Below, in pieces: positions 3,299 through 55,707 of a DNA stretch of 64,000 nucleotides (position 1 is the first letter of the stretch; every line of letters begins with the position of its first letter). Below the pieces are notes generated by a model that did not search any database, was not told the DNA's origin, and saw nothing but the letters and a program-made list of their open reading frames with translations. Location of the stretch: contig QPGO01000009.1 in assembly GCA_008632985.1 (NCBI GenBank), positions 1-64,000 on the forward strand. The letters run 5' to 3'. Origin of the DNA: Psammoneis japonica (taxonomy: Eukaryota). The position numbers and the translations under genes are program-made.

Positions 3299-3299
3299 T

Positions 3300-18149: not shown

Positions 18150-18455
18150 TGCTTTTGAATTTGCTCCTTAGCATGCCATTCTAGAAGTAGAAGAATCATT
18201 GCTTCATTGCCTTCACACGCTGCGCAGCAAAGGGCCGTTGCGCCACGCTCGTCAGTCCAACTGGCATTGGCGCCGTGCTGGAAGAGAATTCGTGCCCCCT
18301 CCACATTGTCCCACTCGATGGCAGCAATCAAAGGAGTCATGCCCTCTTCCCCAAGCACGTCAACCACCTCAGGATTGAATTTTAGAAGCTCATCCATGAT
18401 GCCTGCTTGGTCTTGGTGCAAAGCTGCCAAGTGGAGAGCTGTTGAATCCAGAAAG
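18150..18455 (-). pseudogene. ankyrin-repeat gene fragment at the edge of island 2
   Basis: Three ankyrin repeats: STALHLAA, GMTPLIAAIEWDNVEGARILFQHGAN, GATALCCAACEGNEAMILLLLE. Confidence 0.75.
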
Positions 18456-28960: not shown

Positions 28961-29699
28961 GTGCAACAGCCACCAGCCTTGCCCAGCCAGGGTGCAGCAG
29001 CTTGCCTTGCTTGGGGCTGACATGGTGGCTTGCAACAGACAGGCAATGGACAGGCAGCGTGGGGTGCTCAGTGCTCAGCAGGCCCCTGGGCAGCCAGTCG
29101 TCTCCTCACAAGAGAGCAGCTCACAAGCCCACAACTCCTGCATGGTGTGCATCCGCCACACACTTGCTCTGTCAGGATTTTGTTGGGCTGGTGCACTGCA
29201 AAAAACAGCACTTCTTGAAAGCTGTGATGTGCAGTCTTTTGTGCTGCTCTGCCAAGAGACAGCACTGGCAGCCTTGAAGTGCTTTCTCCTCAACAATGTG
29301 AAGCACAAGGCACAAGGTTGGGACATTGCAAGCTCAGTCCAACATGCACGCCCAGCCAAGTGCCAGCAGGCATGCCACATGATGGCAGCACCCCCCGAGT
29401 GATGAGAGGCAAAGTGGTTCAGCACACTGCTGCCTCAGCCCTCAGCCCATCATCCAAGTCTTCATGCAGCAGCAATCTTCAGCGGTCCAACTGCGCTTCA
29501 TGGCTTTTGCCATTGCAGCCTTGACAACTCCACCAAAAGAGTTTCCCTCAATGTCCACATGCCCAAGCTTGTTGTTTTTTGCACAGAGGCAGTGTTGTCA
29601 TCTTGCCAGCTGTTCCCCCCCAGCACTTTCATCCAGAGAGCACAGCTCTCTAACTCAGAATGATTGCCACAGCGGGCACACCATTTTCTGTGTTGTGGA

Positions 29700-35110: not shown

Positions 35111-35699
35111 CATGCTTGGCTGTCATGCTGCTGCTTGCATGTGAAGGGCTGGGGGTCCATTTTGTCAACAGCAGTGCTGTTTTGCCAATGGTCAATGTTT
35201 TGCCACATGCAATTGTGTTGTGACCCTGTTTGGACAGTTGTGCAGAATCTTTCAGGGTGCTCTGCAAGATTTTTGAGTTGATGCACACAAATGTCAAAAG
35301 CCAAGAAAAGTTCAATGACACGCAAATGCATCAGAGACCAACATGAATTTGTCTTCCTTGTGAACCATGTTGTCCTGCCTGCTTGCACCTCACACATGCA
35401 TTGTCAACACACGGCACAAGTTGCAGCACATGTGAAAGACCAAATCAAGCTCCAGCTTGCCACAGAATGCAAGCCACATTGTTGTTGTCAACCATTGAAG
35501 AAGCATTGAACATTTTGTTGCAACTGTTTGTTTGTGAAGACAATGAGATGCAGCCATTTGGCAAAGTGTCCAATTGATGATGCACAGCCACTCTGTCTCC
35601 AACTCCAAAGTCATTGATGGCAGGGCCCGGGCACCTGCAGCAGAATCAGCTCTGGTGGCAGTTGCTTGCACAATCAGCACAAGTGCCCTGTCCTTGTTG

Positions 35700-36540
35700 G
35701 AGCATGGTTCCCTGATCTCAAATTGCAGTTGGCTTCATTCTTGCATCAAATCTTCCAGCATGGCATGGGTCCGCTCTCAAGTGTGTGACGCCAAAGGCCA
35801 ACATTTGTGCAAAGCACAGTTGACACTTTTCTCTTGTGGAAATGTTGGAGCCAAGGACAGGCTGTTTTCCAGCTCTGCCCACAAAGCAAGAGCTTGTAAA
35901 GGACACAGCGCTGCAAGTGCTCCTTGCAAGAATCTTTTGAATGCCAGTCGGGTTTCTGCAAGAGAGTGAGAGATGTTGTTGGCTCTCTCATTCTTGCGGT
36001 TGCTCTGCTGCAGGAAATTCCAATTTTGTGATCTTCTGGATCTTTGTCATTCCAGAAGATCTTTGCCCTGTTGGCAGAAGATGTTGCACCATCCTCATCA
36101 GGTGTTGAGCTCTTCACCACCTCTGCACAGATCTGGGTTCTTGAGCTGTCCCCAACATTGGCACCCATCTGAGCAAGGACCAAACAGCCAGAGATGGCAG
36201 AACAAATGACTTCAGGCTCCAAATGTGGCAGGCACAGACAAGGAACACCCTTGGACACCCACCTCTGTCATCTTTTTGCAGCACCTCTCTTGCTGTGACT
36301 CTGCTGAGTTTTTTTTTTCTTGGCCAAGACAAGTCTCTCTTTGCGCTGTTTGCTTCAGCTGCCATGTCAGTTGCTCCCTCCCCCCCCTCCCTCCTGAAGC
36401 CACTCAGTCTGTCAGCCGAAGAAGCCTTTGGCAAGGCTGCATTTGGCATTGTTGACAATTGCTGCAACAGTGCAGTGCTTGGGACAAAGCTCAAGCTCAT
36501 GCTTTGATCTGAGAGGGAGATGAAGGTTCGCACAGTGAAG
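35700..36540. repeat. diverged direct repeat of 50620-51500 carrying a remnant minus-strand reading frame
   Basis: ORFs 35746-36258 and 50653-51243 share AQMGANVGDSSRTQICAEVVKSS.PDEDGATSSANRAKIFWNDKDPEDHKIGISCSR. Confidence 0.9.
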
Positions 36541-36711
36541 CTCTGGAACACGGGTGCGCCAACCGACTCCGAATGTAAGCCTTCAGACATTTAGACGAGT
36601 GTTGACACTCTTTTCGATCGCCTGATGACGTGACATGATATGAGATTCATCGGTCCCCCCATGTCAACGGAATCCAAAATTTTGAATTTGAACAAACAGA
36701 CAGTGGAAACC

Positions 36712-39085
36712 TCAATGGGCACATCGCAACAAATGTGCAACAAATGCGACAAAGCCGAGATTTGCAACCCGACATGGTTTCCTGTGCACGTGTCATGGAA
36801 TGACAGTCGAAAAGCACCGACCCCGATGCCTCCTTAACGGCGCTGGACCTTTTGGAGCAAGCAACCGAAATGTACAATCGCGCAACGAAGGAAGAGCACA
36901 TGCCGAATCTAAGAACGTTCACAATGGCTTTTCTGGTGTTGTCCAAGTGCCCACAACGTGTTGGTAACGTGGTCAAGGGGCACGAGAATTGTTGCAAGAC
37001 CAGACGACATGTGCACAGAGACTCGTCAGCAAGGTCCAAGCTACCCGCATCACCTAAACAATTTGAGGGAAGTTCTTGTCCACAACATGCACGTGTGTTT
37101 TGCAATGAAAAGGAGATAGCCGGAATACTACAACGCATCCGTCTTGCTTTAAGACTGACGACCACCCATTACGGTAGAAGTGCGCATGTGCGAGCTAGAA
37201 GTAGTACTAAGGTAATGTATAGAATTACGAGCGAACGTTTTAGGAACTCTGTTTTCTATTCCTTTTAATTTGAGACGTGTTTTTATTGTCTCTCTAGAGA
37301 GGTATGATTTGTATTTTTTCATGGGAGCCTTGTAAAATTATTGCTCCCAACGAATGCTCTTTTCTCTTCCGTCAATGTTTCAACAACAAGCTTGACTTCC
37401 GAAGCGACACGACTTACATGATAGCAATGCGAGCCTGAAATAGAGTGTGGTCAATGAATTCTCTTTCGTCAATGTTGCCTCTCTGTTTCAACGTGACGTC
37501 TGAAACGGCCTCGGCTTACAGTACTGCGAGCCTGAATTCTTGAGCTGTAAAAGCGAACCGAGATGGCGCAAACGGCAGAGAAAGCGCGTTTCTCTGATAG
37601 ATTGCAAAGTTCTTGAACCGACTGAGTCATCAAAATTACGAGTACTAGCCTTCAAATGATCTGACATGGTCACCGGATGTCGTAACAAACACCTCTTCGG
37701 AAGGACTTGTTGGTGGAACCGGTGGGGGCATCTGGTGAGTTTTAGCTACTGCTTCGAGACTACCACACAGGTAGCCTTACTAGGCAACCCCACGACTGAC
37801 GTAATGCCCCCCATTGGTGAAAACGTTGGCGAGTGTTGCGCTACTGCTTCGTGACTATCGGTAAAGGCTGCTTGCCCGGTCCGCCGATGCCCTATTAGGT
37901 AGCCCCGTCTAACGTCCACCTTGCCTTGCGGCAAAATTCGTTCTTCTCCCAACCAATGGATATGCGTGCGAGTTGTTGTGTCACTGCTTCGTGACTATGA
38001 GTAATTGACGAGAGGCTGAAGCCTTCACATCTACCCAAGCCCTAATAGGCGACCCCGCAATCTAACATTCCGTACCTGTGAATTCGTGTGCGAGTTCGCG
38101 TTACTGCTTCGAGTCTGGATAATTGACAAGAGGCCGTCTCGGGTTGCGAGAAAGAGTGCCACGTCTATCCAAGTCCTAATGAGTAACCCCGCTTCCACGT
38201 TCACGCCGCCCCATGGCAGCAAAAGCCACAACAAGTCAAGTACGAGATATTGCTACTGCTTCGGGTAGAGCAATTGACAAGAGGCCGTCTCTTATTCCAA
38301 CGTTGTTGGGAGACTGAGTGCCACGTCTGCTCAATCCTAATGGGTAGCCTCGCATTGCTGCTGTACTTTTCAAAACGTCCTTCTTGGTGAATCCAATCCC
38401 AAACCACAATCAGTACATCGCCTCGCCTTGAATATCCCAGACCGCCGTGCCGCAACCTAGACACGAGCACCTCAACGTATCCGCTTCTTGCCCACAACCA
38501 CGGTGAATGATAATTCTGTCTCTGTGTACGTACAAGAAGGCAAGAGCGAGTTGAGTGGATGAAATACAAAAGAAAAAGGAACAACACGATACACGATCAC
38601 GACAAGAACACACGTACCTTACTCTGCAACGACAAAAGCCGGCAGCAAGCAGAACGCCCATGGCCACTGCAAAGAGCGCCATGGTCAAAAGAGAAACACA
38701 ATCAACTCCTCCATTTTACTGCCGTGTTGTTTGAGTTGATTGTCAGAATTATGAGCAAATCGAGAGCGAGCGGAAGTCAGCATCGGATTGTTCGTGTACC
38801 AGAAGCACGTAAAATCCACGGAGCCTCAGTCCTCGGTCTTCCACGACTCGTGTGCTCTCGGTGCCTGGCAGGTTTCGACAACTTATCCTCTTGTGGGATC
38901 AGATATTTTCAAAAATGTCGGAACCGGTACTGGCATGCCGAATCTTCCAAAAACGAGCGGCAAATCGATCGCGAGCGTCATGGTGAAGTTTCTCGTTTCT
39001 TTGATGATGGATGCTTGATGCTTGTGTGTTGTGTGGTCGCGCGTTGGTTAGTCATCGGATCTTTGCGGACGCACATCAGACGTAC
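36712..39085. repeat. near-identical ~2.4-kb direct repeat, copy 1 (copy 2 at ~52880-55248)
   Basis: Identical or near-identical ORF translations offset by ~16161 bp (37488-37688 vs 53649-53849; 37666-37854 vs 53827-54015). Confidence 0.95.
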
Positions 39086-41709
39086 CGGTACAATCGATTT
39101 TTAGCACATTTTATTTCAAAACTTGTGTCATGTTGTGTGTGTCATTTTCCTCTTGACATCTTCCAGAAGAATCGCGGAACAAGGTCAACAAAAAACAAAC
39201 GTTGTTGCGTCCATCTCTGCTGTGCTAAGCTGCTCTGTTGGGAAAGAGAGTGATTTTCCCGTGCAAACAGACCTCCATGTGGAAGGAGGTGTCAGCTGCT
39301 GTGGTGTTCGGGGGTGCAGCACGATTTGTCTTTGTCTCCAACCCCTTCTGCTTCAAGACTGCACTCGTGTGAAGTGCCATTGCACTTGAAGCTCTTGCCT
39401 GTCTTTTGTGTTGTTAAAGATCTTTTTTCAACAAGATCCAGTGATGAAAAAAACTGACAAAGATTGCGGCAAACAAGAGGCGGCAGAGCTGCTGTGGCAT
39501 CTGATGCACATGGAATGCCAGCTGTGCTTGCAGCTGTTTTCTGCTTGAAATGTCTTCCCAAAGAGCACACAAACAGCCCATCTAGAGATGTCTCAGGACA
39601 GCCTCATGCACCAACCTTGCAAGTCAAGCAACTTCCTTGTCAAAACTCGTCTTGACTCAAAGAAGAGGCAGCTGTTTGGGGCTGCAATGCTGAAAAGACG
39701 ATTGCACCAACATTCAACCAAAACACACACTGCAACAATCTTTTCTCACCAAAGCAATTGGCAAATGATGTGACCACATTTGTCACAAAAACATTGTCCA
39801 CTGACTCTTCCTTGTCCAAGGCCAAGAGACCATTCCCACAGTGCAACAAAAACTTGCCACACAAGGCTCTTCTCTCAACCCGCTCGCCATCTGTGGCATC
39901 AGTGATCAGGTTTTCAAAAAGTGCACAACAAAAATCACATGGCTCTGGCCCAAATGACAAGCTGACAGAGAGACAATCTTGCTGCAAAGATGCAACAGGA
40001 TTCCTGCAAACTGGTGGCAAAAGCAACTTCCCCCAATCCTCCATCCCTCGGAAGATCCCACAACTCATCTGGAGTTAAGACCACCCTCAAACATCTGGAG
40101 GTTTTGGCAGATGTCTGCCATGCAACTTTTTCTTTTGAACAAACCCAGCAAAAATGCAAAGAATGGTGCTTCTGTGCGATCTTGTGCTCAGCAACATGAC
40201 AAGCAGACCTGCAGAATTTCGTGGTTCAGTTGACGCTGCTCACATTGCAATCAACCAACAAGCCAGCTGATCCCTGAGACAATGTTTTCACAACATGAGG
40301 CTTCATTCCCATTGACAGCCAACAATGAGTTGCAAACTTGAACTACTTTGGCAAGGAACTGAGAGACCAGATTGTTTTTGCTGCCCCAGAAAGGGCTTTC
40401 TCAGAAAAACAACAAGCTCACAGTTTTGAGTTCTGCCTCATGCAATGTGCAATGAATGACAAAGCACCAGACTGGCGCCAAAGTGAAGGATGTTTGTTGT
40501 GCAAGACCATGTTGCCATGTGCCTGCAAAAGCATTTTTTCAACACAAGGGTCCCAAAATGCAACATCAAAGGTGCTCTGAAACTGAGCCAGAAGCTTGGT
40601 TTCCTCCAGCACAATGGCTTTTGTGGACAAGAACTCTCAACTCTGTCATTTGGTGTGACAGAGTTTTTTTCCCATTTGAGTGGCTCTGAAGCCATGCCAG
40701 CTGATTGGAGATGATTTGCTTGCCAGAAGGTTCAAAGCTTCCAAAAGCCATCTGCACCACCTCAACAATTGACAGAAAGCTTCAGGTCATGACAGATGTG
40801 TGCACCATTTTGCATTGCAAAGGAGACAGCCAGAACACTGCCACACATCCCTCTTGCTTTGTGGCTGATGACCACCTCCAAGCCCTTAAAGCGCACATGT
40901 GCCAGCTGGAAGCAGGGGTGGAACAAACAAGTGCAAGTGGGTGTGTGGCAAAAACTGCCAGTGCTCCAGAGAAACTGAGTTTGGAGCTTGGACCAGGTCA
41001 GCAAATGCACCTTGAAGGCAGCTTTGATTGGGAACAACAAAGAGTCAACACCCCCATTTCTTGTTGTTGTTTGCTGATGTTCTCATGGGAGAGTGCCATT
41101 GTGTGCTGAGAAAGTGGTGCTCGTCACCGCCATTTCTCTCAAATGCAAGTTCAGCCCACTGCACCTTCAAAAACAGCCACCATGTCCATCTCGCTGAGGT
41201 TTGTCAGGTTCTTGGCACACCCAAGGTCTCAACTCACCTGCTGATGGATGGCATGATGAGAAGCAAGACAGCTGTCCACACCACCTTGCACAGCATTGCC
41301 AGAGAAGTGGTGCAGTTGAGACAGATGCAAGGAAACTGCCTTGTGCTCAGAAGTTGTGTTGCACCCAGCATCTCTTCTGTCATGTTCCATCAAAGTTCCA
41401 GAAGAGTGCCAGCTTTGCACATTTTGTCATGGTCTTTGAGGGCATGACATGGAGTGGTTCTCAAGGCAAGACAGTCCTTTCAGAAGGCAGAACTGTCAAC
41501 AGCATTGTGTTGCATCAATTTGCTGGGTGCCACGGCTGCAGCACAACAACAGAGTTGAAGCTGAAACAACCTGCCCTTCTTGCTGCTTGGTGCAAAAGAC
41601 TCAAAACACAGAGACCATTGTGCCAGCAAAGTGCTTGTGTCTTTTTTGGCAAAGAGTTGCTGACATCTCAAAAGGAGCTTTGGTGCTTCTTGGAACAGAA
41701 AACTTGAGT

Positions 41710-44700
41710 GGCACAACTGGAAAATGTTGTGGCTCTTCTTGTTCAAAATTCACACTCTCATGCTCAGAGTTGTGTGTTCTTAACAAGTCCTTGACAATCA
41801 TTGACAAAGAGAGTTCGCTGATTGTTGGAGCCTTCCAAGCGGCACTCAACAGTCAATGCAAATCAGTTTTTGGTGCATCACACACACATTCTTGATAATT
41901 TTTGTGTCTGCTTGTTTCAACATTGTTCTCATGTCTGTCCACAATTAAACTGACCTTCCAAGCAGGAAATGACAGTTGATGAAACTTGTCACTTGCATTT
42001 GTTTCTGTCTTGCAGTGACAGCCATGTGTTTGCAACAACTTTCTGACATTGTTCATTTCTGACAACAACAATGTTCAATTGTCTTGTAAACCTGATTGTG
42101 CATCAGCTGTGTGCTGCTCATCATCTGATTGGCAAATGTTCCATTTCGTCATTTCTGCACTGCACACCAAACAATGCTCCCTTTTTCCCATTCTTGTTTT
42201 CTCCTGCATTCCACCAATTCCTGTTGTCCTTTGCAGTCCCTGCACAACAGGTGTGATGTTTTGGTCCTTGTGCCCTCCCTTGCAACCACTCTTGCTCTCT
42301 CCACAATCATCTGCACCAGGCAGCTGCATCATCCTGCAATGATCTGTCTTGCATTCCTTCTGTTTGGCAGGCCAAAGTGTTGCCTGCAACAAGAGAAAAC
42401 TTTGTGCCAATGACCAAGTTTTGTGCATGTCTTGTGTTTCTTGTGATCTTGTCTCATGTGCTGCTTCTGCTCACCTTCGTGCCCTTCCCTGTTGCCTGTC
42501 TTCCATTTCAGCTCAGGTCAAGTGTCCAGATGTCTGTGTGCAAAGATGTGCACAAGTGTCAGTCATTTGCATTGTGTGCCCAATCACCATGCATTTGCCA
42601 CTTGTTTTTCTCACTTTGTGTCTTGTGTCCTGCATTTTGTTCCATCCCATCCACAACGCCATTGCCTTTTGCCACTGCTCTCATTGTCAGACATTGGATG
42701 CGACTTGAGTTTGCATTTTTTGTGTCTTGTGAGAGAGCAACAATTCATGTTTTTGGCTAAAATGCAAGCCTGACTGTCAGTTGATTCCCATTGGCATCTC
42801 TTTTTCAGCAACAACTTTGTTTTAAAAATCAATGATTGCATCACAATGCAGTGGTTTGAACGATTTGAAGCAACCTCAATGAGTCACTCAGTTGTTGATG
42901 TCACACATGCATTTGACACAAGTTTGACTTTGTCGTGTCAATGTGTTTTTGTCAAGATTGAAATTTTCACACTCATGCTGCACACTCCCAGCTCCAGAAC
43001 TTCAATCAACACCTTTTTGCCATTTGGTGTGTTCAAAGATTGCCGCTGCCAACAAGACAATCACCTCTCTCGAGAAAGCTCAGAAACAGACCCTTCATGC
43101 CAGTGAAATGACAACTTTGGAGACCAACCTTGTGAAGAAAGTGGGAGACTTGAAGGTGGGTCATGCTCTTCCACTCTCTCTTGGATTTCTGTCCAAACAA
43201 GAGTGAGATGAAGTCCCTTCCTGCAAGACACCCTTGGCTTGAAACAGGGAACACCATGAATTTCCATTCACTGACTCCCTGCCCTGGTTGTTGTTGGCTC
43301 CCCTGGGACACAATGGAGGCACCCAAGGCCATCCAAAGACAACTGGGCACTTGCACTGTCACAAAGAGCAGAAAGCTCCCTTGTCTCTGCAGGTGGGGTG
43401 GCTGGGCTAAAGCAAGAAGCCAGTCACGTCAGAAAGACAAGTGGCTGCATTGGCCCAAGACCGGGCTTTTCCTTCCCAACCATTGTTGTTCTTGCCTCCT
43501 CCTCAGGGACCCAATGAACTCTTTTGTGCCCATCCAAAGACAACTGAGCACTTGCACTGTCACACAGACAGCTTCTTTGTCTTTCTTGCAAATTTCTTCT
43601 TGGCTGGGCCAAACCCTGTCATGATGTCAGAGAGACAAGGTGCTGCATTGACACAAGACAAGGCCTTTGCTTCCAGACCATTGTTGCTCAAAATCAACAT
43701 CTTTTTGCCATTTGGCCTTTTTGCCATTTGGTGTGTTTGTTGACCATGCCGCCAAGAAAAAATGAGAAGCAGAGCCAACAAGGTGCTGGCCGCAATGACG
43801 CCAGTCGCGCCAGCCCCGCTGGTGGCCATGTTGGAGGTGGTGCTCATGGTGTTCAAGCACAAGGTTGAGGTCCTCCCAGGCAGTCCAGGCAAAGCTCCAA
43901 GACAAGCTCTTGGCAACATCAAGGCTCTTTGTCCAGAGCTGCTCCACTGGCCGGTGACCCAGGATCTGCCGCTGCTGCAGTCTCCACCAATGAAGAAGCT
44001 GATGCCTTTGAAAATGTGTCTGACGGCTCTTCCCCAGCATTTCAACAAGAAGATCTCTGCTTTCTCAAGGAGCATCCACCAATCACCATGCCTCCAACAG
44101 CATCAACCCAAAAGAAATGTCTGGCAAAGAATGCAAAGTGTGGCTGTTGTTTTGTTGGCAGATGCACGGCCTTTGGAAAAATCAGCTGCAGCAAAAGTGC
44201 AAAGCCCATGGTGCAAAAATTGCCACTGCCAACAAGACAATTGCCTCTCTCCAGAAAGCTCAGAAACAGACCCTTTGTGCCAGCAAAATGACAACTTTGG
44301 AGACCAACCTTGCAATGAAAGTGGGTGACTTGAAGGTTGGTTGTGCTCTTCTGTTCTCTCTTGGTTTTCTGTCCAAACAAGAGACAGGGAACACCATGAA
44401 TTTCTGTTCACTGGCTCCAATTGCCACTGCCAACAAGACAATTGCCTCTCTCTCCAGAAAGCTCAGAAACAGACCCTTCATGCAAATGACAACTTTGGAG
44501 ACCAACCTTCAATGAAAGTGGGTGACTTGAAGGTTGGTTGTGCTCTTCTGTTCTCTCTCTTGGCTTTCTGTCCAAACAAGAGGCAGGGAACACCATGAAT
44601 TTCCATTCACTGACTCCCTGCCCTGGTTGTTGCTGGCTCCCCTGGGACACAATGGAGAAACCCAAGGCCACCCAATGACAACTGGGCACTTGCACTGTCA

Positions 44701-46860
44701 CACAGAGCAGAAAGCTCCCTTGTCTCTGCAGGTGAGGTGGCTGGGCCAAAGCAAGGAGCCAATCACATCAGACAGAAAAGGGGCTGCATTGGCCCAAGAC
44801 CAGGCTTTTCCTTCCCAACCATTGTTGTTCTTGCCTCCTCAGGGACCAGATGAAGTGTCAAGACAACTGAGTGCTTGCGCTGTCACACAGATGGTTCCCT
44901 TGTCTCAGCTGCAAATTGGTTCTTGGCTGGGCCAAACCCAGTCATGTCACTGAGACAAGGTGCTGCATTGACACAAGACAAGGCCTGCACTTCCCAACCA
45001 TTGTTGTTGTTGTGTCCTCCTGAATCCAGCAGAGTTGTCAAAAGCCATCCCAAGACAACTGAGCACACACAGATGGTTTTCTTGTCTCTGCAGGTGGGGT
45101 GGCAGGGCCAAACCCAACCATGTCAGAGAGATGCAGGGCTGCATTGACACAAGACAAGGCCTTTGCTTCCCAGCCATTGTTGTCATTGGCTCATCTGGGA
45201 TCCAACAGAGTCACCAAAAGCCATCCCAAGACAACTGAGCACTTGCACTGTTGCACAGATGCTTTTCTTGTCTCTGCAGGTGGGGCAGCTGGGCCAAACC
45301 CAGTCATGTCAGAGAGACAAGACAAGGCCTTTTCTTCCCAACCATCATTGTGGTTGGTTCCTCTGGGATCCATTGGAGTCACCAAAAGCCATCCCAACAT
45401 GACCAAGCACTTGCACTGTTGCACAGATGGTTTTCTTGTCTCTGCAGGTGGGGTGGCAGGGCCAAACCCAGTCATGTCAGCAAGACAAAGGGCTGCATTG
45501 ACACAAGACAAGGCCTTTGCTTCCCAACCATTGTTGTCATTGCATCCTCTGGGATCCAATGGAGGCATCCAATGCCACCCAAGACAATGGAGCACTTGCA
45601 CTGTTGCACATGTGTGTCCCTTGTCTCTGCAGGTGGGCTGGCTGGGGGCCAAAGCCAGTCATGTCAGAGAGACAAGGTGCTGCATTGATGCAAGACAAGG
45701 CATTTGCTCCCCAACCATGGTTGTCAGCATGTCCCTGGCAAGCCACTGGAGTCTTCCAATGCTGTCCCAAGACAACTGCACACCTCCTTTGCCACATCTG
45801 CGGGCATCACACTTTCACACCTTGTGCAGCTGGGCACATTCTTGGTTCTTGTTTGTGGAGGAATCACACAAGGGGCTGCTGCAGCCAAGACAAGGCTTGC
45901 AGCTTCCCAAATGAAGAGTGCAAAGACACCACAGTTGGGCCAGCTCACTCAACAAATGCAGACTGGGCGCATTTGGGGTGCATGTCATGCTGTGGGCAGA
46001 AACTCAAATCAACATGCATTTGTGGTGATGATGATGATCTGGCTTGGCATTTGGCGAATGTTTGCTTGGACACAGGGACACCACCACATGCTTCATTTTA
46101 GCTGCTCAAGTGGCGCTGGCCTGCGCATCATGCACCATCCACCTGGCAAGCCTGTTGCTCCAATTGGAGATGCCAAGACATGTCATCAAACTCAACACCA
46201 GAATGAGCCCCTTCAAACTGATGATGTTTGGCTGAGGATGAACTCTGGCCATTGTCCTCATTTGTGGCAATGGTGGCAGGGAAGAAGATGAAACAATCTT
46301 CCCAGTCTCTGTCATTTGGCAGTGGCTTTTCAAGCAGCAGGGCCATTCCTCACTTTGTGAGATGCAAAGACCATCACTTGGCAAGTTTAAATCCAAGCTG
46401 CTCTTCCTGCTGTTCCCAGTGCTTCTCTTCCTGTGGCACTGGGGTGTGCCTCCCAAAGTCATCATCAGGGTTCAGGCCAAAATGGAGAAAGAAGAACACT
46501 GGAGGTGCCTTTGAAAATGTGAGAGCATGCTTGTTGTTGTTGTTGTTGTTGTTGTTGTCACACATCCAACCAGGATGTCAGATCAGAGGATGAGTTGTGC
46601 AGTGTCCAGCAGGAAAAAAGAACCACAGGCACAGCAGAGACAGAGCAAAGCAAAGGCAAAGAGCTGACAAAATGGAAGGAAAAGGAAACAAACAAAGCAG
46701 AGGTTGAGAATGAGGACAAAATGAGCCACACAGTTGACCAAAACAAAGGCAGAGATCCACACAGGTGACTCAACACAATGCTTTTGGGCCACGTCTGCAC
46801 AGCCATTGCTGTGATTTTTGACAAAAATGCTCACAGCCCACAAAATCAATTCTTTGACCT
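41710..46860. repeat. right arm of the inverted repeat, including inverted copies of the ~180-bp array (43250-45790) and a local ~200-bp triplication (~43050, ~44230, ~44430)
   Basis: Reverse-complement matches to 29700-35110. CAACAAGACAAT..CCTCTCT..AGAAAGCTCAGAAACAGACCC occurs three times. Confidence 0.88.
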
Positions 46861-49800
46861 CAAGTGCAAGAAACACCTGGAGAGCATGATGCCAACACAT
46901 CATTGTGGTCATGAGGTGTGTGTCCCAAAGAAAGGCATCTTCACTCAATGCCTTCAATCATCATCTGAACTTTTCACTCAATTTCTTCATTTCTTCTGCA
47001 AATGTTTTGAAGGTCTAAAGTGGAGCACATTTTGCAGATGCTCATGACTTGGATGGTGCACAAAACAGATGATGGAGAAAGGCATGCACTCTTTCTTTGG
47101 CTTTGTTTTCCATGTCAAAAACAAAAGCAAGTGCAGCAATCCTTGCTTGTCGCAATCATCTGCAACAATCAAATTGACTCAATGTCCATGTTGGTTTGTC
47201 CAAAAGTGTCAATCAACGGCTCAAACGCTGCCCTCTGTGACTTGAGGACACTGTCCTGGGCAGTTTTGTCAGGTGTCAAAATTTGTGCAAGCTCCTGAGG
47301 AGCTGCAAGCAGTTGAACATCGGACCCTGTGAACATGCCAGCTCCAACCAAATTAATTTGGAGCATGACTTTAACTGCTCACATTGTCTGCAAAGAGGCG
47401 TTTTCAAGCAACCAATGCTTCTAAGATCAGGGTCAAACTGCAGAAAATGCTGCCAGCAACAATTGAATGATGACAGCTGGCCAGAGTCCTTCTGTTGGAC
47501 ACCCATTTTTGTCATTTTGCATGCACAGAACGATGTGCAGTTTGTTGACAATGTGGGTTGAACACTGCACAACAGTCCGGGAAGCATCTGCTGCACAAAA
47601 GGACATTGAATGTGAGCAATGGCAAGAACCAACAAGCACAGTTGGCACCATTTAACCATGGCTGAAAGGTGGGTTTGATCCAGGACTTGGTGAGTGCACA
47701 GGCAGCTCTCTCTCTCTGCTGGGCTCCAAGCACTGGAAATCATTGCTGCAATGATGACAGTTTCTTTGTCAAAGAGCAATGTCATAAAATGCTGTGTCTC
47801 AAGAGTCTCATCAACTGACGCACTGTGCAAAGCTTGCTCAAGTGCCTTTCAAAAACATGTCACCAAGCTCACTTCCTCTTTGCCACAACAGATGGAGCCA
47901 GCAAACTGCAGCACACAGAGAAAACACTCATGTGAGTCACTCAGAGGCAACTCAAACAAAGGCAGAGATCTGACAAATGTGGAAGAAAAAAAGACAAGCA
48001 AAACTGTTCTCAACAAGTGTTTAAAATGTGGACAGAATGAGCCACACAGGTGGCTTAAATTGAGCAAAAAAGATTTCTTTGTTTGTGTGCTAAGAAACAA
48101 AATCAACAACTGTGTGTGTTGAAGATCTGTGGATGCAGTCAGCGTGCATGTGAAAAATTTAATCATTGACAAGTTGTGCTCTTGTCAAGCATGGAAACAT
48201 GTTGCAGATGCAATTGCTTCTGACAGTGAAGGGCACAAAAATGTTGTCATGAGAATCACTCATTAGAAAAACCGCTTTCCAGCGCAACATTTGGATGGAC
48301 AAACAAACAACAAACATTTGGAGTCTGGTTGGCAAAAAATTGTTTGTCAATGTGCTGCTTTCTGACCCCTTCTCATGCAAATGCATGGCGATTTTGAAAC
48401 TGTGTGTTGTTCCTTTGTGCGTGCATGAAAACACAAAAATTCTTGAACTCTTTTGTGTTTGTGGGTGTCTTGTTGTTTTCAAGACCAACAAGTTTTTTTT
48501 TTTCATTTTTGTCAATTGTCGAATGCACCACAAATGTCATTTTGGCTGGCAGGTGGCTTGTTTGTTGATTTTGTTTGTCTTTTGCATTGTGGCAGCAACT
48601 CGATTTTGGCACCGCACTGGCTTTGACAAAAACAAACAAACAAACACTTTACAACCCAAATGATTGGCAAGACTCAAAATGTTTGTTGTTGTCATTTGTT
48701 GTTTTTTTGCATTGGAAACCTCCTCAGCCCACCATCACCTTTGAATGCATGGTTGCATGCACTAGACCCCTTTCTGCTTGTGTGTTCACAATGGCAAATT
48801 TGAACATCATCACGTCTCTGCTTTAGAAAATGGCACCTCCTGTGCGGAACAGCAGAGTGACAGCAATGTTCCACCTTGACACTCTCACAATCTTCTCAAC
48901 ATGTTTCAAAAGCTCCTCTGACTTTTGTGCCATGGGCTGGAAAATGGACAATCCTTGGCTGTTGTGTGTTGTTGTGTTGACACCCAGGTTGCGTCTGATC
49001 AAAGTTGGGCATCGTGCTTTCATGAAGCTGGCAGCAAAGTTGCGGTTCATTGTTGAGTTCTTGAGCATGGTGTGAGTGGAAAAATGTTGACTTTCAGTGA
49101 TTTTTCCAGCAGTTCCTTGGCAACTTCTTGCACTTGTTTTTTCAAAATGACTTGCAGAAAAATGGACACACACACACTTGGTGAGAGTGTGCTGTTGACA
49201 CGGCTGCCATTGTCACATGCAAGCACTTGTTCAGCTCCCCACTTGTGTCCATCACAAGTTTTGACTGTGGCAAGCAGCAGTTCAGCACATTTGCTGTTGA
49301 CAGTGAGTGATTTTTGCTGCAAGCACATTGAGTTCCATGGTGCCTCAAGATTTGTGCCAGTTGTTGGTTTGAGAAGTTTGTCTCTGAGTCTGCAGAGCTG
49401 CTCCAAGCCACTCCTGGATGCAGAGAACAACTCATACAAACAGAGTGCTGTCTCTTGTCTGTTTCTCTTGAGAGAAACCTTTTGTTGATGTGTGCAAAAC
49501 AGCACACTTTGTTGCCTGTTCAAGAGTTGGTTCACGCATGAGAGTGTTGACTTTGCATTTTTGTCTGCACACTGCTGCGGCCACAAAAATCGCTTGTCAG
49601 AAAACCAAGCTCTCATCTTGTGGCACCATTGTTTGATGATCAACAACCCAGTCCATCATCAGCTTTGAATGCATGGGTGCATGCAAGAGACTGTTCTGCA
49701 TGCACTCACAACAACACATTTGAAAATTGTCATGTTCTTGCCATTGAAAATGGTGCCAAAAGTTTGGGCCACATGCTTCATGTGAAAAGGGGCACTTTTG

Positions 49801-51509
49801 TGTGTGTGCGTGCCCACCCAAATCTGGAGAAAAAGTCACAACTGACAAAATCACAACATGACAGCATGTCAAGCAGATTCTTCACCTTGTTCTTGGGACT
49901 TCCTCAAAAGCCTGAATGAGGAGAGGTCTGTCTTTTAAAAGAGCTGTGAACAACATTTGGCCTCCAGCAAGAGACTTCAACACGAGGAACAATTCAAAAA
50001 CTGATGTGATCGATGTCATTCCACGGCTGTTGACATGTTTTCTTTGTGATGGCGTTTGATCTTGAAACCATCACAAAAGCAATTGAAGGCAGCTCAAAGT
50101 GGGGTGCTTTGAAGCAAAATGTTGTGATGGATGCTGCGCACATGGAGGACTGCATCGATGACAGATCTGATGAAGCAGAGAGACCCACCATGATGTTGAG
50201 TGTCAATGATGAGTTGAAATTTTGTGCACGCAACAGCCCCACATGTGACACATCAATGGAAAGCTGAGAGTCTGCTTGTTCCACAGGGGAGGGAATGGGG
50301 GGTGGGGCAAGCAGTGGCAGTTTGTTCAGAAGATGAGGTGTGAGTTTTGGGTGTGATCATTGAAACGCACGTGTTTGTAAAAACAATTGGTGTTTCACCT
50401 CACTTCTTTGACTGGCAAGGAACCAAAATGGGGGAACACTTTTTGGATGCCAAACACAATTTGATTTGGACCATTGCCATTTCAATGCATTCCACAGACA
50501 TGCAGGCATGCATTGAAATGGGCTCGGGTGTCAAAAACTCCGTTGCATGTTCCTCAAGTGTTCCCCCATTTCAAAGTCATCAAAAATGTCCAAAAACATG
50601 GTGGAGACCAATGCCCCAATGCATGGTTCCCTGATCTTCAATTGCAGTTGGCTCAATTCTTGCACAAAATCTTCCAGCATGGCGTGGGTCCACTCTCAAG
50701 TGTGCGACGCCAAAGGCCAGCACATGTGAAAAGCACAGTCAACACTTTCATCTTGCGGAAATGTTGGAGCCTGGCACAGGCTGTTTTCCAGCTCTGCCCA
50801 CAAAGCAAGAGCTTGCAAAGGACACAGTGCTGCAAGCGCTCCTTGCAAGAATCTTTTGATTGCCAGTTGGGTTTCTGCAAGAGAGTGAGAGATGTTGTTG
50901 GCTCTCTCACTCTTGCGGTTGTTCTGCTGCAGGAAATTCCAATTTTGTGATCTTCTGGGTCTTTGTCATTCCAGAAGATCTTTGCCCTGTTGGCAGAAGA
51001 TGTTGCGCCATCCTCATCAGGCATTGAGCTCTTCACCACCTCTGCACAGATCTGGGTTCTTGAGCTGTCCCCAACATTGGCACCCATCTGAGCAAGGACC
51101 AAACAGCCAGAGGTGGCAGAACCAATGAGCTCTTGCTCCAAACATGGCAGGCACAGACAAGGAAAACCCTTGGACACCCACCTCTGTTGTCTTTTTGCAG
51201 TGCCTCTCTTGCTGCAACTCTGTTGAGTTTTTTTCTTGGCCAAGATGAGTCTCTCTTTGTGCTGTTTGCTTCAGCTGCCATGTCAGTTGCCCCCCCCCCT
51301 CCCAAAGCCACTCAGTCTGTCATGACTTCTCCTCACAAGGTCAGGAGCATCTTCATGGAGAGAAAATGCCAAGAAGCCTTTGTGGCAAGGCTGCATTTGG
51401 CATTGTTGACAATGACTGCAACAGCGCAGTGCTTGGGACAAAGCTTGAGCTCATGCTTTGTTGATCTGAGAGCGAGACAAAGGTTCGCACAGTCAAGCTC
51501 TAGAACATG

Positions 51510-51800
51510 GATGCTGATGGGCTCAGCACCAAGGAGTTTTGCAAACTTCTTGGCAACCAAGCTTGCTCTTGGCAGCAGAGTCACCTGGTGGAGACCAACA
51601 ACCTTGGCCATGACATGCTTTTCTGGATCAAGAAAGATGACGGCAGATCTGTGACATCTGAGCTTGTTCTTGCTCTCCAATTTGAGCAGGTTTTTGATGT
51701 CTTGGCACAGCACCATGGACGCATGGGTGGTCATCCCAAATTGGGTTGCATGTTCAATGACATCAAGAAAAAGTTTTACAATGTCACAGAGATGCTGGGT
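51510..51800 (+). mobile_element. integrase zinc-binding (H2C2-type) domain remnant, Ginger/KRBA2/SCAND3-like
   Basis: LALQFEQVFDVLAQHHGRMGGHPKLGCMFNDIKKKFYNVTEM resembles the E.FD.L...H...GH.G...M...IK.KY.NIT pattern that precedes rve integrases. No catalytic core was recognised downstream. Confidence 0.55.
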
Positions 51801-52399
51801 TTCTCACTTCTGCTGCCACATGCTGGTTGCTGCACCCCTTGCAGCCAAACAACCAGAGTGCTGTTGGAAGCCTCTTTCAGTGCCGCCAGTGGCTTTCCAG
51901 TCAGCCAAGCCATGCACTCACCATGGGTGCAGGCTCTTGTTCCAGCATTGTGTTTTTCTTGGCAGCGGTGCTTGGTCAGTGTGGGTTCTTCCTGTTGAGC
52001 AATTGTGTGTAAAATGTGTGGTGTGGTGGATGTCTTCTTCAGGTGGTGGGGCCGGGGGGAAACACCTCGCAGCCAATCACACACAAAATCTGCGCACTGC
52101 AGTCTGCAGTGGGGGATCATGTGCAAAAACTGCAGCTGCACTCCACCAGCACCAAGCTGCTCTCTGCCACCAGTGCCGGCAGCCAGCAGCTGCTAGAGCA
52201 GCAGCAGAAAGAGCAGAGTGCGGCAGGTTGGGAGCAGTGGGGGGAAATGCCTCGCAGCCACAATCTCCAAATCATGTGCCGCACAAAATCTGTTCAAGCC
52301 AGATGAGCTGCAAGAGAAGTGCAGCGTTCACTGTGTGGGCTTGGCATTTGCAAACAATGAGATTGGCTCCTCGCGGATGAGGCAGTGCATTGACTGCAG

Positions 52400-53300
52400 T
52401 CAGGTGGACCAATGCCATGATTGGGTGGTTGAAGCTCCGAGTGAGAGTTCCGACTCGTCTTCTCCACGAAATGCTTGGGGAGTTCTTGATGACACATGAA
52501 AGCCATGAGTCTGTCCATGCCCAATTTAACTCTGCCGAATTCCCAAACCCACTCCAACATTGTCTTGGCTTGGTCCAAACAGAGAGTAACTTCAAGACAG
52601 GACACGATTGAAATGATTCTGCACGGCAATGACATGCTGCTGTTCAAGCTGGACGAGCTGCAAGAAATCTGTCTATCGATAAGTTGACATACAACTCAGT
52701 CTTACAAGCCCACGTGTCTCAGAAGTCCTTGCAGAAAGCAATCGACCATTCATGCAGGGGTGCGTTCAGAGTGGCCAAATGGATGCGCGGAGCAGATCTT
52801 GGTGAGAATGGAACAACTCGCTGCGCATTAATGCCTGCTGTACGCCAAGAGCCAGCCCGATCCTGGTGCTGCGCCAAAATCAATGGGCACATCGCAACAA
52901 ATAATGCGACAAAGCCGAGATTTGCAACCCGACATGGTTTCCTGTGCACGTGTCATGGAATGCCAGTCGAAAAGCACCGACCCCGATGCATCCTTAACGG
53001 CGCTGGACCTTTTGGAGCAAGCATCCGAAATGTACAATCGCGCAACGAAGGAAGAGCACATGCCGAATCTAAGAACGTTCACAATGGCTTTTCTGGTGTT
53101 GTCCAAGTGCCCACAACGTGTTGGTAACGTGGTCAAGGGGCACGAGAATTGTTGCAAAGACCAAACGACATGTGCACAGAGACTCGTCAGCAAGGTCCAA
53201 GCTACCCGCATCACCTAAACAATTTGAGGGAAGTTCTTGTCCACAACATGCACGTGTGTTTTGCAATGAAAAGGAGATAGCCGGAATACTACAACGCATC
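52400..53300 (+). pseudogene. pentatricopeptide-repeat (PPR) gene fragment; its 3' part is duplicated at ~36715-37140
   Basis: TYNSVLQAH, LQPDMVSCARVMECQSKSTDPDA..ALDLLEQA and MPNLRTFTMA are PPR-like motifs, interrupted by frameshifts and stops. Confidence 0.65.
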
Positions 53301-55248
53301 CGTCTTGCTTTAAGACTGACGACCACCCATTACGGTAGAAGTGCGCATGTGCGAGCTAGAAGTAGTACTAAGGTAATGTATAGAATTACGAGCGAACGTT
53401 TTAGGAACTCTGTTTTCTATTCCTTTTAATTTGAGACGTGTTTTTATTGTCTCTCTAGAGAGGTATGATTTGTATTTTTTCATGGGAGCCTTGTAAAATT
53501 ATTGCTCCCAACGAATGCTCTTTTCTCTTCCGTCAATGTTTCAACAACAAGCTTGACTTCCGAAGCGACACGACTTACATGATAGCAATGCGAGCCTGAA
53601 ATAGAGTGTGGTCAATGAATTCTCTTTCGTCAATGTTGCCTCTCTGTTTCAACGTGACGTCTGAAACGGCCTCGGCTTACAGTACTGCGAGCCTGAATTC
53701 TTGAGCTGTAAAAGCGAACCGAGATGGCGCAAACGGCAGAGAAAGCGCGTTTCTCTGATAGATTGCAAAGTTCTTGAACCGACTGAGTCATCAAAATTAC
53801 GAGTACTAGCCTTCAAATGATCTGACATGGTCACCGGATGTCGTAACAAACACCTCTTCGGAAGGACTTGTTGGTGGAACCGGTGGGGGCATCTGGTGAG
53901 TTTTAGCTACTGCTTCGAGACTACCACACAGGTAGCCCTACTAGGCAACCCCACGACTGACGTAATGCCCCCCATTGGTGAAAACGTTGGCGAGTGTTGC
54001 GCTACTGCTTCGTGACTATCGGTAAAGGCTGCTTGCCCGGTCCGCCGATGCCCTATTAGGTAGCCCCGTCTAACGTCCACCTTGCCTTGCGGCAAAATTC
54101 GTTCTTCTCCCAACCAATGGATATGCGTGCGAGTTGTTGTGTCACTGCTTCGTGACTATGAGTAATTGACGAGAGGCTGAAGCCTTCACATCTACCCAAG
54201 CCCTAATAGGCGACCCCGCAATCTAACATTCCGTACCTGTGAATTCGTGTGCGAGTTCGCGTTACTGCTTCGAGTCTGGATAATTGACAAGAGGCCGTCT
54301 CGGGTTGCGAGACTGAGTGCCACGTCTATCCAAGTCCTAATGAGTAACCCCGCTTCCACGTTCACGCCGCCCCATGGCAGCAAAAGCCACAACAAGTCAA
54401 GTACGAGATTTTGCTACTGCTTCGGGTAGAGCAATTGACAAGAGGCCGTCTCTTATTCCAACGTTGTTGGGAGACTGAGTGCCACGTCTGCTCAATCCTA
54501 ATGGGTAGCCTCGCATTGCTGCTGTACTTTTCAAAACGTCCTTCTTGGTGAATCCAATCCCAAACCACAATCAGTACATCGCCTCGCCTTGAATATCCCA
54601 GACCGCCGTGCCGCAACCTAGACACGAGCACCTCAACGTATCCGCTTCTTGCCCACAACCACGGTGAATGATAAGTCTGTCTCTGTGTACGTACAAGAAG
54701 GCAAGAGCGAGTTGAGTGGATGAAATACAAAAGAAAAAGGAACAACACGATACACGATCACGACAAGAACACACGTACCTTACTCTGCAACGACAAAGCC
54801 GGCAGCAAGCAGAACGCCCATGGCCACCGCAAAGAGCGCCATGGTCAAAAGAGAAACACAATCAACTCCTCCATTTTACTGCCGTGTTGTTTGAGTTGAT
54901 TGTCAGAATTATGAGCAAATCGAGAGCGAGCGGAAGTCAGCATCGGATTGTTCGTGTACCAGAAGCACGTAAAATCCACGGAGCCTCAGTCCTCGGTCTT
55001 CCACGACTCGTGTGCTCTCGGTGCCTGGCAGGTTTCGACAACTTATCCTCTTGTGGGATCAGATATTTTCAAAAATGTCGGAACCGGTACTGGCATGCCG
55101 AATCTTCCAAAAACGAGCGGCAAATCGATCGCGAACGTCATGGTGAAGTCGCTCGTTTCTTTGATGATGGATGATGGATGCTTGTGTGTTGTGTGGTCGC
55201 GCGTTGGTTAGTAGTCATCGGATCTTTGCGGACGCACATCAGACGTAC
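52880..55248. repeat. near-identical ~2.4-kb direct repeat, copy 2
   Basis: See copy 1. Weaker homology continues to ~55635 (vs ~39110-39465). Confidence 0.95.
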
Positions 55249-55707
55249 TCGTAGATTTCGAACATTTCGAACATTTCAAAATTTATGAGCATGAATGTTA
55301 TTTTGTCTTGATATCTTCCGGATCTTCGAATGACAAAAATACACGTTGCTGCATCGATCTTTACCGAGCTGTTCTATTGGGAAAGAGACTACTAGTGGTC
55401 CCGTGCAATCAGATTTCCATTTGGAAGAAGGTCCGCGGCGATGTGTGTTCGGGGATGGAGCCTACTGTACGACACGATTTGTCTTTGTTTCTAGTTCCTT
55501 CTACTTCAAGATCGTACTCGCGTGAAGTACCATCGTACTTGAATCTGGCCTAAAACAGCTCTTGTCTATCTTTTGTGTTGTAAAAGATCTTTTTTCAACA
55601 GGATCTCTAGTGATAAGAAAAGCTAACAAAGATAAGAGTCTGACGAATCACACCCGAATTCTTATTAATTGGCTTATCATTAAAAGAGGTGATGGCGTCT
55701 ATGCTGA

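Follow-up and report, generated by a model that had tools for sequence, protein, structure and literature searches.

In fungi, RIP (RID/DIM-2) converts CpA to TpA by C>T changes, needs duplicated DNA and leaves strand-coordinated runs of mutations. Very-short-patch repair of E. coli handles T:G mismatches in a biased manner and turns CTAG into CCAG or CTGG, which amounts to a drift from TpA to CpA or TpG. Deaminases of the TadA/ADAT/ADAR lineage carry out A-to-I deamination, yielding a base that is read as G, and A34 of tRNA is preceded by U33; to our knowledge these enzymes are RNA editors, and a natural role on algal chromosomal DNA is unproven. A 5' U/T preference is stated for ADAR, and amphioxus ADAT2 edits both A and C in DNA (both as given in 10.64898/2026.01.13.699255). 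CG methylation on diatom transposons is maintained by DNMT5 (PMC9998398, relevant section). The closest described case is that of Bigelowiella natans, for which Mettrop et al. (bioRxiv 10.64898/2026.01.13.699255) report de novo A>G/T>C changes, all on TpA. According to the sections of this preprint on which we draw, A>G or T>C made up 230/231 mutations in two silent viral insertions of mutation-accumulation lines, at a TpA mutation rate ~1000 times that of the genome. The target is single-copy, the process was on in only 11/15 lines, 124 clusters poor in TpA and rich in CpA and TpG are found, and an ADAT2-like DNA adenine deaminase is proposed. The initial annotation of the DNA studied here knew of no description of such a process; that statement is outdated by this 2026 account of TpA-only hypermutation.

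We analysed a 64,000-nt stretch of diatom DNA (the window). Sliding observed/expected (o/e) ratios of TpA, CpG, TpG and CpA, a check proposed in the initial annotation, delineate four sharply bounded islands (~2.9-4.8, 18.2-20.7, 27.9-36.6 and 39.1-52.5 kb) that make up 41% of the window, and not just the stretch originally cited. The islands and their contents are as follows.

2885..4758, no strand: island 1, TpA-free zone (TpA and CpG positions)
4942-6033, + strand: ribosomal protein L4 gene (RPL4 Pfam match)
18122..18739, - strand: ankyrin-repeat ORF running from normal DNA into island 2 (Ank_2, E 2e-21)
18189..20652, no strand: island 2, TpA-free zone (TpA and CpG positions)
27900..36575, no strand: island 3 (TpA/CpG positions, self-alignment)
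30131-30449 and 31333-32669: tandem arrays in island 3, 110-bp and ~168-189-bp units
39113..52526, no strand: island 4 (TpA/CpG positions)
44218-44617 and 44924-45775: satellite arrays in island 4

The bias in composition far exceeds what chance could produce. Windows inside the islands have o/e values of 0.00-0.15 for TpA and 0.03-0.56 for CpG (outside, 0.46-1.15 and 0.79-1.28), and TpG/CpA o/e in the islands reaches 1.4-2.2. With expectations derived from the dinucleotide density of the DNA flanking the islands, the 23.4 kb of island cores contain 54 TpA (1010 expected) and 184 CpG (1344 expected). The longest TpA-free runs measure 2691 and 2649 bp (the longest one in island 4 spans 43408-46099), compared with a mean TpA spacing of ~23 bp outside. 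Compared with the outside, island cores have more TpG (11.1% versus 7.1% of dinucleotides) and more CpA (11.5% versus 6.8%), and the total of pyrimidine-purine steps stays equal (23.6% versus 24.0%, island cores compared with flanking DNA).

Island 1 ends ~200 bp upstream of the L4 gene, which is of mitochondrial type. No second copy of islands 1 and 2 was found within the window, transition-tolerant scoring included. The 206-residue translation of the ankyrin-repeat ORF lacks tyrosine altogether and has Cys/Trp at positions where ankyrin repeats usually carry other residues; this ORF is probably undergoing erosion at the edge of island 2. Islands 3 and 4 share inverted homology (30331-35106 versus 46757-41718). 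The 142 island ORFs of at least 90 aa, the edge ankyrin ORF aside, gave no Pfam match above the curated cut-off, nor was any domain of a transposon or virus detected. A search for homologues of a 359-aa island ORF returned none, one long island ORF is non-protein-like by Atlas, and the purine/pyrimidine period-3 signal of island ORFs is weak (median 1.14 versus 5-29 in real ORFs). Island DNA is mostly non-coding and satellite-rich and cannot be recognised as viral or transposon-derived; the earlier description of the affected DNA as silenced or transposon DNA is not borne out by these domain searches.

Viral-type avoidance of dinucleotides could in principle give similar islands if they were foreign or selected DNA that never held TpA or CpG, and the targets in B. 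natans are indeed viral insertions (10.64898/2026.01.13.699255). The base composition of the islands is the same as that of flanking diatom genes, however, their 6-mer profile in purine/pyrimidine terms resembles that of the host (r 0.92-0.98), and island paralogues carry TG in one copy where the other has CA. A reading in which TpA and CpG were never present is contradicted by normal homologues that have them exactly where the island has TG/CA, and we consider it the least probable of all explanations discussed here.

These homologues include a direct repeat, 36712-39464 versus 52880-55633, with 94.1% identity over 2794 columns. Its parts are listed below.

35702..36557, + strand: left flank of repeat copy A, of island type (homologue: 50621-51514)
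36770..39090, + strand: unmutated core of repeat copy A, normal TpA/CpG (alignment to copy B)
39090..39464, + strand: tail of repeat copy A, mutated and lying in island 4 (the example of the initial annotation)
52880..55633, + strand: repeat copy B, normal composition throughout (alignment)

The core of copy A differs from copy B (52931-55250) by 15 substitutions in 2279 aligned columns, with 0 TpA changes, and the two copies begin to diverge precisely at the point where copy A passes into island 4. The tail aligns with its unmutated counterpart 55230-55633, and all six string pairs given as examples of directional change were found as quoted. Where the normal copy has TpA (17 aligned sites), the island copy has TpG in 9 cases and CpA in 7, with 0 kept; where it has CpG (16 aligned sites), 6 remain CpG in the island copy and 4 have become TpG. 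On the other side of the core, 35702..36557 and 50621-51514 differ by 10 TG/CA doublets; single differences number 11 for CG versus TG/CA and 2 for TA versus TG/CA.

The 2.3-kb core is ~99.4% identical between copies 16 kb apart and lies between two islands, so that the process is either not constitutive, or excluded from this patch, or has stopped. The unmutated core is also compatible with an episodic process, although it does not show one. Since the flanks also carry more changes of other kinds than the core ('other' divergence between copies 4.0% and 12.8% versus 0.6%, with more transversions and indels), recent gene conversion of the core may explain part of the contrast. The same excess of every change type in the flanks, indels included, would be expected from passive decay, in which heterochromatin escapes mismatch repair, or is resynthesised by an error-prone polymerase after 5mC deamination, and transitions accumulate with TpA as the hottest context. 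The specificity described below is too high for such decay, which we regard as quite improbable.

The unmutated core also bears on a RIP-like, homology-triggered premeiotic mutator of duplicated DNA, for example diatom DNMT4, an enzyme of 31/60 diatom species that clusters with RID and to which no function has been assigned according to the passage cited (PMC9998398). Tandem, direct and inverted repeats abound in islands 3 and 4, as this explanation would have it. A 2.3-kb direct repeat of such identity and spacing remaining unmutated means that homology is not the trigger; moreover, neither island 1 nor island 2 has a second copy in the window, in B. natans a single-copy target is hit (10.64898/2026.01.13.699255), the chemistry is opposite, with TpA destroyed and not created, and strand-coordinated runs are absent. 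We hold a RIP-like mutator to be very improbable. In that sense the initial annotation's term 'hypermutation of repeat DNA' does not apply, and its argument that the loss of TpA is explained neither by 5mC deamination nor by fungal RIP holds.

Direction was assessed on three normal-versus-island homologous pairs within the window, with composition and the doublet test as the basis of polarity. The tail pair is the first of these; the other two are:

27778..28050, + strand: normal member of the second pair (island member 28518-28800)
40808..40915, + strand: island member of the third pair (normal members 53259-53365 and 37098-37204)

Together the three pairs contain 32 TpA, of which 14 have become TG, 13 have become CA and 1 is kept; for 39 CpG the corresponding numbers are 9, 7 and 12. 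TG is kept at 42/50 and CA at 35/40 positions. Transitions per base amount to 0.40 in TpA, 0.20 in CpG and 0.07 elsewhere. In seven island paralogue pairs, 89 TG-versus-CA doublets occur in 4871 aligned columns (null 8.8 +/- 2.8, maximum 20 in 2000 simulations), and such doublets are seen across 14 satellite units too. Decay ran independently in each copy after duplication. The number of strand-orientation runs matches expectation (7 versus 5.8, 24 versus 23.6 and 8 versus 7.9): the choice of strand is random site by site and the process is not strand-processive. Polarised pairs and doublets confirm the directional conversion of TpA and CpG to TpG/CpA claimed earlier; the change is restricted to these two dinucleotides and confined to bounded domains.

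The few surviving TpA are strongly biased in context. TTAA is spared: it accounts for 26/54 TpA in cores versus 52/1523 outside (Fisher P-value 9e-22), and TTTAAA occurs 9 times in cores versus 4 outside. GTAC falls from 160 outside to 0 in cores and ATAT from 93 to 0. An additive half-site rule for the sparing of TTAA fits the survivor counts but is contradicted at 3/5 TTA-containing sites of the polarised pairs. For CpG, A/T-flanked sites are lost fastest (survival 0.045 for TCGA) and GCGC sites slowest (0.45). Passive decay fits this pattern poorly: survival is 5% for TpA versus 84-88% for TG/CA, and GTAC disappears yet TTAA is spared. The WA preference of polymerase eta would strike AA and TTAA too, which counts against passive decay.

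CpG persists farther into the island than TpA at 8/8 edges, by ~50-900 bp; the TpA loss zone is wider than the CpG loss zone and the two never coincide exactly. The CpG-poor core of island 1, for instance, covers ~3268-4600, and in island 2 CpG is dense up to 18358 at the left and returns from ~20332 at the right. Because the CpG-loss zone is the narrower one at every edge, we read CpG loss as a second, co-located process. This mismatch also weighs against a heritable symmetric modification of palindromic TpA in silenced chromatin, mutagenic as 5mC is at CpG, with an oxidised thymine such as 5hmU/5fU (made by a TET/JBP enzyme) or methylated adenine as candidates and both palindromic pyrimidine-purine steps decaying to TG/CA. 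Spontaneous miscoding of a symmetric mark would explain why loss is limited to the two self-complementary pyrimidine-purine steps and strikes both strands at random site by site, and TpA and CpG loss do co-localise. As the cited part of 10.1101/2023.11.30.569493 describes, repeats of the dinoflagellate Amphidinium are marked by 5hmU, the product of a TET/JBP homologue; this 5hmU overlaps 5mC and lies in TG-rich motifs. Among the matches listed in our literature search, no report of 5hmU or of a TpA mark in diatoms was found, and activity in only 11/15 B. natans lines (10.64898/2026.01.13.699255) is more in keeping with a regulated enzyme than with a standing mark. We consider such a modification unlikely.

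A long-read base-caller that misread heavily modified CG/TA as TG/CA, or a polishing error, might mimic these patterns: mixed-strand miscalls could yield a random TG-or-CA choice per site, paralogues included, and the assembly platform is not on record. Contigs of public run X1, which is possibly from the same sample as the assembly and for which no library is recorded, show 0 differences from the window at 19341-19625 and 20459-21006, at a k-mer depth of 56-93. The latter contig crosses the edge of island 2, and such depth points to accurate reads. Island copies differ also by 143 transversions and many indels, conversion amounts to 95-100%, a level seldom reached by miscalling, and in B. natans this signature consists of real mutations called from Illumina data (10.64898/2026.01.13.699255). 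An artefact is extremely improbable.

Overall, we suggest, with a probability of roughly 60%, that these islands are diatom nuclear domains where two transition processes, each specific to a sequence context, are nearly complete. One would be an A:T>G:C process acting on TpA on either strand and giving TpG or CpA, presumably identical to the de novo process in silent integrated viral DNA of B. natans; the other would be ordinary C:G>T:A decay of CpG to TpG/CpA, likely through deamination of 5-methylcytosine, DNMT5 maintaining CG methylation in diatoms. Targeting would depend on chromatin state, not homology. A TadA/ADAT2-like enzyme that deaminates adenine in 5'-TA-3' DNA to inosine, read as G, would be the most likely agent, although adenine deamination can be proposed only tentatively as the specific chemistry, at somewhat less than even odds. 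The initial annotation had named an adenine deaminase, a modified A or T base and biased repair as candidate mechanisms.

The phenomenon is very probably real and of the B. natans kind, in a diatom. As far as the preprint text cited here goes (10.64898/2026.01.13.699255), both systems show A:T>G:C transitions on TpA that give TpG or CpA according to strand, no dependence on copy number, a long-term trace of TpA-poor, CpA- and TpG-rich clusters, and discrete affected regions in an otherwise normal nuclear genome (here four islands, with TpA o/e of 0.46-1.15 in flanking genes). They differ in that depletion is near saturation in the diatom (TpA o/e ~0.02 versus Rho 0.45 for the NCLDV insert of B. 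natans) and in that CpG is lost (184 versus 1344 expected), which the cited preprint text does not mention. The B. natans bias is purely towards GC with GC>AT not raised, which does not hold for the diatom islands, and the diatom targets contrast with the viral insertions in that no domain of a virus or transposon could be detected in them. The sparing of TTAA and the wider TpA edges are features of the diatom; the main text of the preprint does not give flanking context.

Like RIP, the process acts locally, brings transitions close to saturation and damages selected DNA, in which a dinucleotide signature remains; unlike RIP, it removes TpA (A>G), keeps CpA (35/40) and TpG (42/50), does not require duplication and shows orientation runs at random expectation. 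Methylated-CpG decay resembles it in turning CpG into TpG/CpA on both strands, A/T-flanked sites fastest, but covers only the CpG half, TpA loss being stronger and wider. Depletion of CTAG in E. coli is weak, extends over the whole genome, concerns a single tetranucleotide and would protect CpG rather than remove it. The 5'-T context of the TadA/ADAT/ADAR lineage fits the TpA changes in the islands. B. natans and the diatom are both SAR-clade marine algae, and TpA hypermutation may be a widespread means of editing silenced DNA.

The window is diatom nuclear DNA. Between the islands lie open reading frames (ORFs) for a mitochondrial-type ribosomal protein L4, a DEAD-box helicase, a globin-domain protein and a fragment of a cyclic-nucleotide-gated channel; the best named relatives of the L4 protein (about 46–57% identity) come from Fragilaria, Fistulifera, Nitzschia and Cylindrotheca. 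When dinucleotides are profiled in steps of 1 kb, four islands stand out, with observed/expected ratios (o/e) of 0.00–0.15 for TpA, 0.03–0.56 for CpG and 1.4–2.2 for TpG and CpA, versus 0.46–1.15 for TpA and 0.79–1.28 for CpG in the remainder of the window. The TpA-free zones were delimited from a 250-bp profile and single TpA and CpG positions:

about 2885–4758, TpA-free zone of island 1
about 18189–20652, TpA-free zone of island 2
about 27900–36575, TpA-free zone of island 3
about 39113–52526, TpA-free zone of island 4

Islands occupy 41% of the 64-kb stretch, and the longest runs without TpA measure 2691 and 2649 bp. The island cores (23.4 kb) hold 54 TpA where the density outside predicts 1010, and 184 CpG where 1344 are expected. 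The gain in TpG and CpA matches the amount of TpA and CpG lost almost exactly, pyrimidine-purine steps keep their total share (23.6% in cores versus 24.0% outside), and island base composition equals that outside to the third decimal. In purine/pyrimidine space, which is immune to transitions, the profiles of islands and host DNA agree with r of 0.92–0.98. Given these counts, the unchanged composition and pyrimidine-purine total, and the host-like profile, the islands resemble the genome's ordinary DNA with TA and CG rewritten to TG or CA. Normal DNA also carries two short TpA-rich patches, 11751–12000 and 58751–59000 (33 and 28 TpA per 250 bp versus about 10 elsewhere), the islands' opposite extreme.

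The initial annotation had claimed that TpA and CpG of repeat DNA were converted to TpG and CpA, and every string it quoted is found in the window. Its homologous pair belongs to a 2.75-kb direct repeat, 36712–39464 (copy A) versus 52880–55633 (copy B), of which it is the tail. Of 17 TpA of the normal copy B that align in the tail, 16 are TG (9) or CA (7) in copy A. The polarised set consists of three independent homologies between normal and island DNA: the repeat tail, a 108-bp fragment and a tandem duplication that spans island 3's left edge.

Fate of dinucleotides of the normal copy in the island copy, polarised set
TpA in normal copy (n = 32): 14 TG, 13 CA, 1 kept
CpG in normal copy (n = 39): 9 TG, 7 CA, 12 kept
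TG in normal copy (n = 50): 42 kept
CA in normal copy (n = 40): 35 kept

Transitions per base in these three pairs amount to 0.40 within TpA, 0.20 within CpG and 0.07 elsewhere. We also used an outgroup-free test, in which independent loss of ancestral TA or CG in two island copies yields frequent TG-versus-CA doublets (two adjacent transitions). Seven pairs of island paralogues (4871 aligned columns, 553 substitutions) contain 89 such doublets, versus 8.8 ± 2.8 (maximum 20) in 2000 simulations keeping base-specific substitution counts, and 14 copies of a satellite of about 168–189 bp show the same doublet pattern. Hence TG/CA is the derived state and decay continued after the duplications; the claimed direction stands on both the polarised pairs and the doublet test.

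The implied role of repeats as the trigger does not. The repeat core (about 36770–39090 in copy A versus 52931–55250 in copy B), which has no long ORF, shows 15 substitutions in 2279 columns, none of them a TpA change, and identity between the copies collapses exactly at the entry of copy A into island 4. No second copy of islands 1 and 2 was found within the window, where transition-tolerant local alignment scores no better than shuffles. Since 2.3 kb of repeat core is untouched and islands 1 and 2 lack a copy in the window, homology is not the trigger. The flanks of the repeat also carry more transversions and indels than the core, with 'other' divergence of 4.0% and 12.8% versus 0.6%. This contrast may stem from recent homogenisation of the core by gene conversion or from faster evolution of the islands in all respects. 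In copy A, the high-identity tract and the stretch of normal composition end within tens of bases of each other on both sides, which points to a gene-conversion patch recently placed in a single large island (27.9–52.5 kb).

Along the alignments, the copy bearing TG or CA alternates randomly (7, 24 and 8 runs versus 5.8, 23.6 and 7.9 expected). As run counts are at random expectation, strand processivity was rejected: the events hit single sites on a random strand, which sets them apart from RIP or APOBEC tracts. TTAA is spared, accounting for 26 of 54 surviving TpA versus 52 of 1523 outside (P-value 9e–22), while GTAC (160 outside) and ATAT (93 outside) are both down to 0 in island cores. Longer T/A tracts protect TTAA better: VTTAAB has a per-kb ratio of 0.34, and TTTAAA occurs 9 times in cores versus 4 outside. 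An additive half-site rule for this sparing fits the survivor counts, yet we dropped it because 3 of 5 polarised sites contradict it. The rule that TTAA is spared while GTAC and ATAT are erased sets an in vitro requirement for any candidate enzyme or modification. CpG has the opposite flank preference to TpA, with survival highest at GCGC (0.45) and lowest at TCGA (0.045), as melting-dependent 5mC deamination would give. CpG also reaches further into the island than TpA at all eight edges, by 50–900 bp, and survival in cores is 5% for TpA and 14% for CpG. Because of this edge offset and unequal survival, the islands look like the product of two co-located processes, the TpA one being stronger.

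The islands contain tandem arrays, direct repeats and long inverted homology. Satellite-like arrays of islands 3 and 4, with units of about 168–189, 199 and 110 bp, are located as follows:

31333–32669, satellite-like array
44924–45775, satellite-like array
44218–44617, satellite-like array
30131–30449, satellite-like array

Two satellite units paired across the inverted homology are 96% identical (31729–31915 versus 45406–45592). Pfam, period-3, homologue and Atlas searches gave no sign of former genes in the islands, except for one ankyrin-repeat ORF at an edge. Apart from it, none of 142 island ORFs of at least 90 aa scored above a curated Pfam cut-off; matches with E of 0.004–0.05, all under these cut-offs, were regarded as chance. 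The purine/pyrimidine period-3 signal is weak (median 1.14 versus 5–29 for real ORFs, with few windows above 6), 8000 scored candidates included no homologue of a 359-aa satellite ORF at E ≤ 1e–5, and the ORF at 51655–52377 is non-protein-like by Atlas score. A few island windows (32851–33450, 51151–51900 and 48451–49200), with purine/pyrimidine period-3 at 5–9 times background, may be relics of coding sequence. The exceptional ORF is:

18122–18739, minus strand, ankyrin-repeat ORF crossing the left edge of island 2

It contains no tyrosine in 206 residues. Its repeat-coding part sits where TpA is already lost and CpG still present; apparently, a host gene is being eroded as the domain spreads. 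Lacking TAA and TAG stops and tyrosine codons, islands give rise to long spurious ORFs, and the ancestry of their DNA is hidden from homology searches.

Contigs of three public sequencing runs of one sample (X1, X2 and X3), none listed as RNA, were compared with the window; the variant letters listed for them cover the flanks. Among the matches listed, X1 contigs of depth 56–93 show no differences over 19341–19625 and 20459–21006, the latter spanning an edge of island 2. This supports the islands against an artefact and falls short of proof, since the X1 library type is undocumented and its reads may come from the very sample that was assembled. Transversions and indels between island copies, together with near-total conversion, also argue against miscalling. 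Most of island 2 has no contig cover in X2 and no X3 contigs were placed; these blanks carry no weight as evidence. Within the ORF at 20977–22629, an X2 contig skips 84 bases with GT..AG ends (21664–21749). The gap resembles a spliced-out intron, and X2, registered as 'DNA?', may therefore be transcript-derived. At 16500–16900 the summed X1 contig depth is about twice that of neighbouring bins and most X1 contigs differ from the window (16798 T>C in 9 contigs, among those listed); a divergent haplotype or an element present in several copies probably lies here.

The initial annotation considered TpA removal undescribed, which is contradicted by a mutation-accumulation study of the chlorarachniophyte Bigelowiella natans, posted as a preprint (Mettrop et al., bioRxiv 10.64898/2026.01.13.699255). 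There, two integrated viral regions took 231 of 302 new mutations, a rate about 1000 times that of the genome, and only 11 of the 15 lines were affected; 230 of the 231 were A>G or T>C, and all are stated to be on TpA. The large target is silent and single-copy, and the genome also has 124 clusters poor in TpA and rich in CpA and TpG. As the agent, its authors put forward a DNA adenine deaminase resembling ADAT2; according to the preprint, ADARs favour a 5' U, and DNA editing by amphioxus ADAT2 is reported for both A and C. Its main text is silent on CpG, flanking context and diatoms. Our literature search found no report of TpA removal in diatoms and this preprint as the only match of its kind; passages of PMC4504042, PMC2806351 and PMC11804724 held nothing relevant. 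Diatom DNMT4, described as a relative of the RIP enzyme RID with no known function (PMC9998398), and the TET/JBP-made 5hmU in TG-rich motifs of dinoflagellate repeats (bioRxiv 10.1101/2023.11.30.569493) are leads, not evidence.

An exact satellite 22-mer had no match in metagenome contigs. Nor did 80 metagenome loci around RPL4 homologues (571 kb, of which the best 32 loci, 217 kb, are likeliest algal) contain any window poor in both TpA and CpG; low-TpA windows at these loci all lie in contigs of 64–69% GC with CpG o/e of at least 0.99. Contigs of this sort are rich in genes, which makes the survey a weak negative.

Our best reading is TpA editing of the B. natans kind, presumably targeted by chromatin, beside CpG decay, and adenine deamination is the most likely candidate chemistry. 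More tentatively, at odds of roughly three in ten, TpA editing would be an old defence or silencing pathway of SAR algae (Rhizaria, Stramenopiles), aimed by chromatin and not by homology, and operating in diatoms alongside CpG methylation. Under such a shared pathway, one ADAT2-like enzyme may deaminate both A (in TpA) and C; alternatively, TpA may bear a heritable symmetric mark, making it a second epigenetic dinucleotide of the 'CpG-like' type. The sparing of TTAA and TTTAAA would be the enzyme's footprint.

To our knowledge, no eukaryotic process removing TpA from chromosomal DNA was known before the 2026 preprint. None of the three features of fungal RIP that we tested is found in the diatom islands, and CpG decay accounts for only half of their signature; the view that 5mC decay and RIP are inadequate explanations was therefore correct. 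Both sequence-level characteristics of the B. natans process are present in the islands. Its 'pure GC bias' is not, as CpG is lost too. Its targets are viral insertions; a foreign origin of the diatom islands is putative. The prior report comes from one chlorarachniophyte (bioRxiv 10.64898/2026.01.13.699255). The same signature now appears in a diatom, an ecologically dominant alga of a different supergroup branch, which argues that the process is widespread and old and not one strain's curiosity. To the B. natans case the diatom adds an end state, saturation with 41% of a 64-kb stretch affected, a link with CpG decay, and targets that need not be recognisably viral or repeated.
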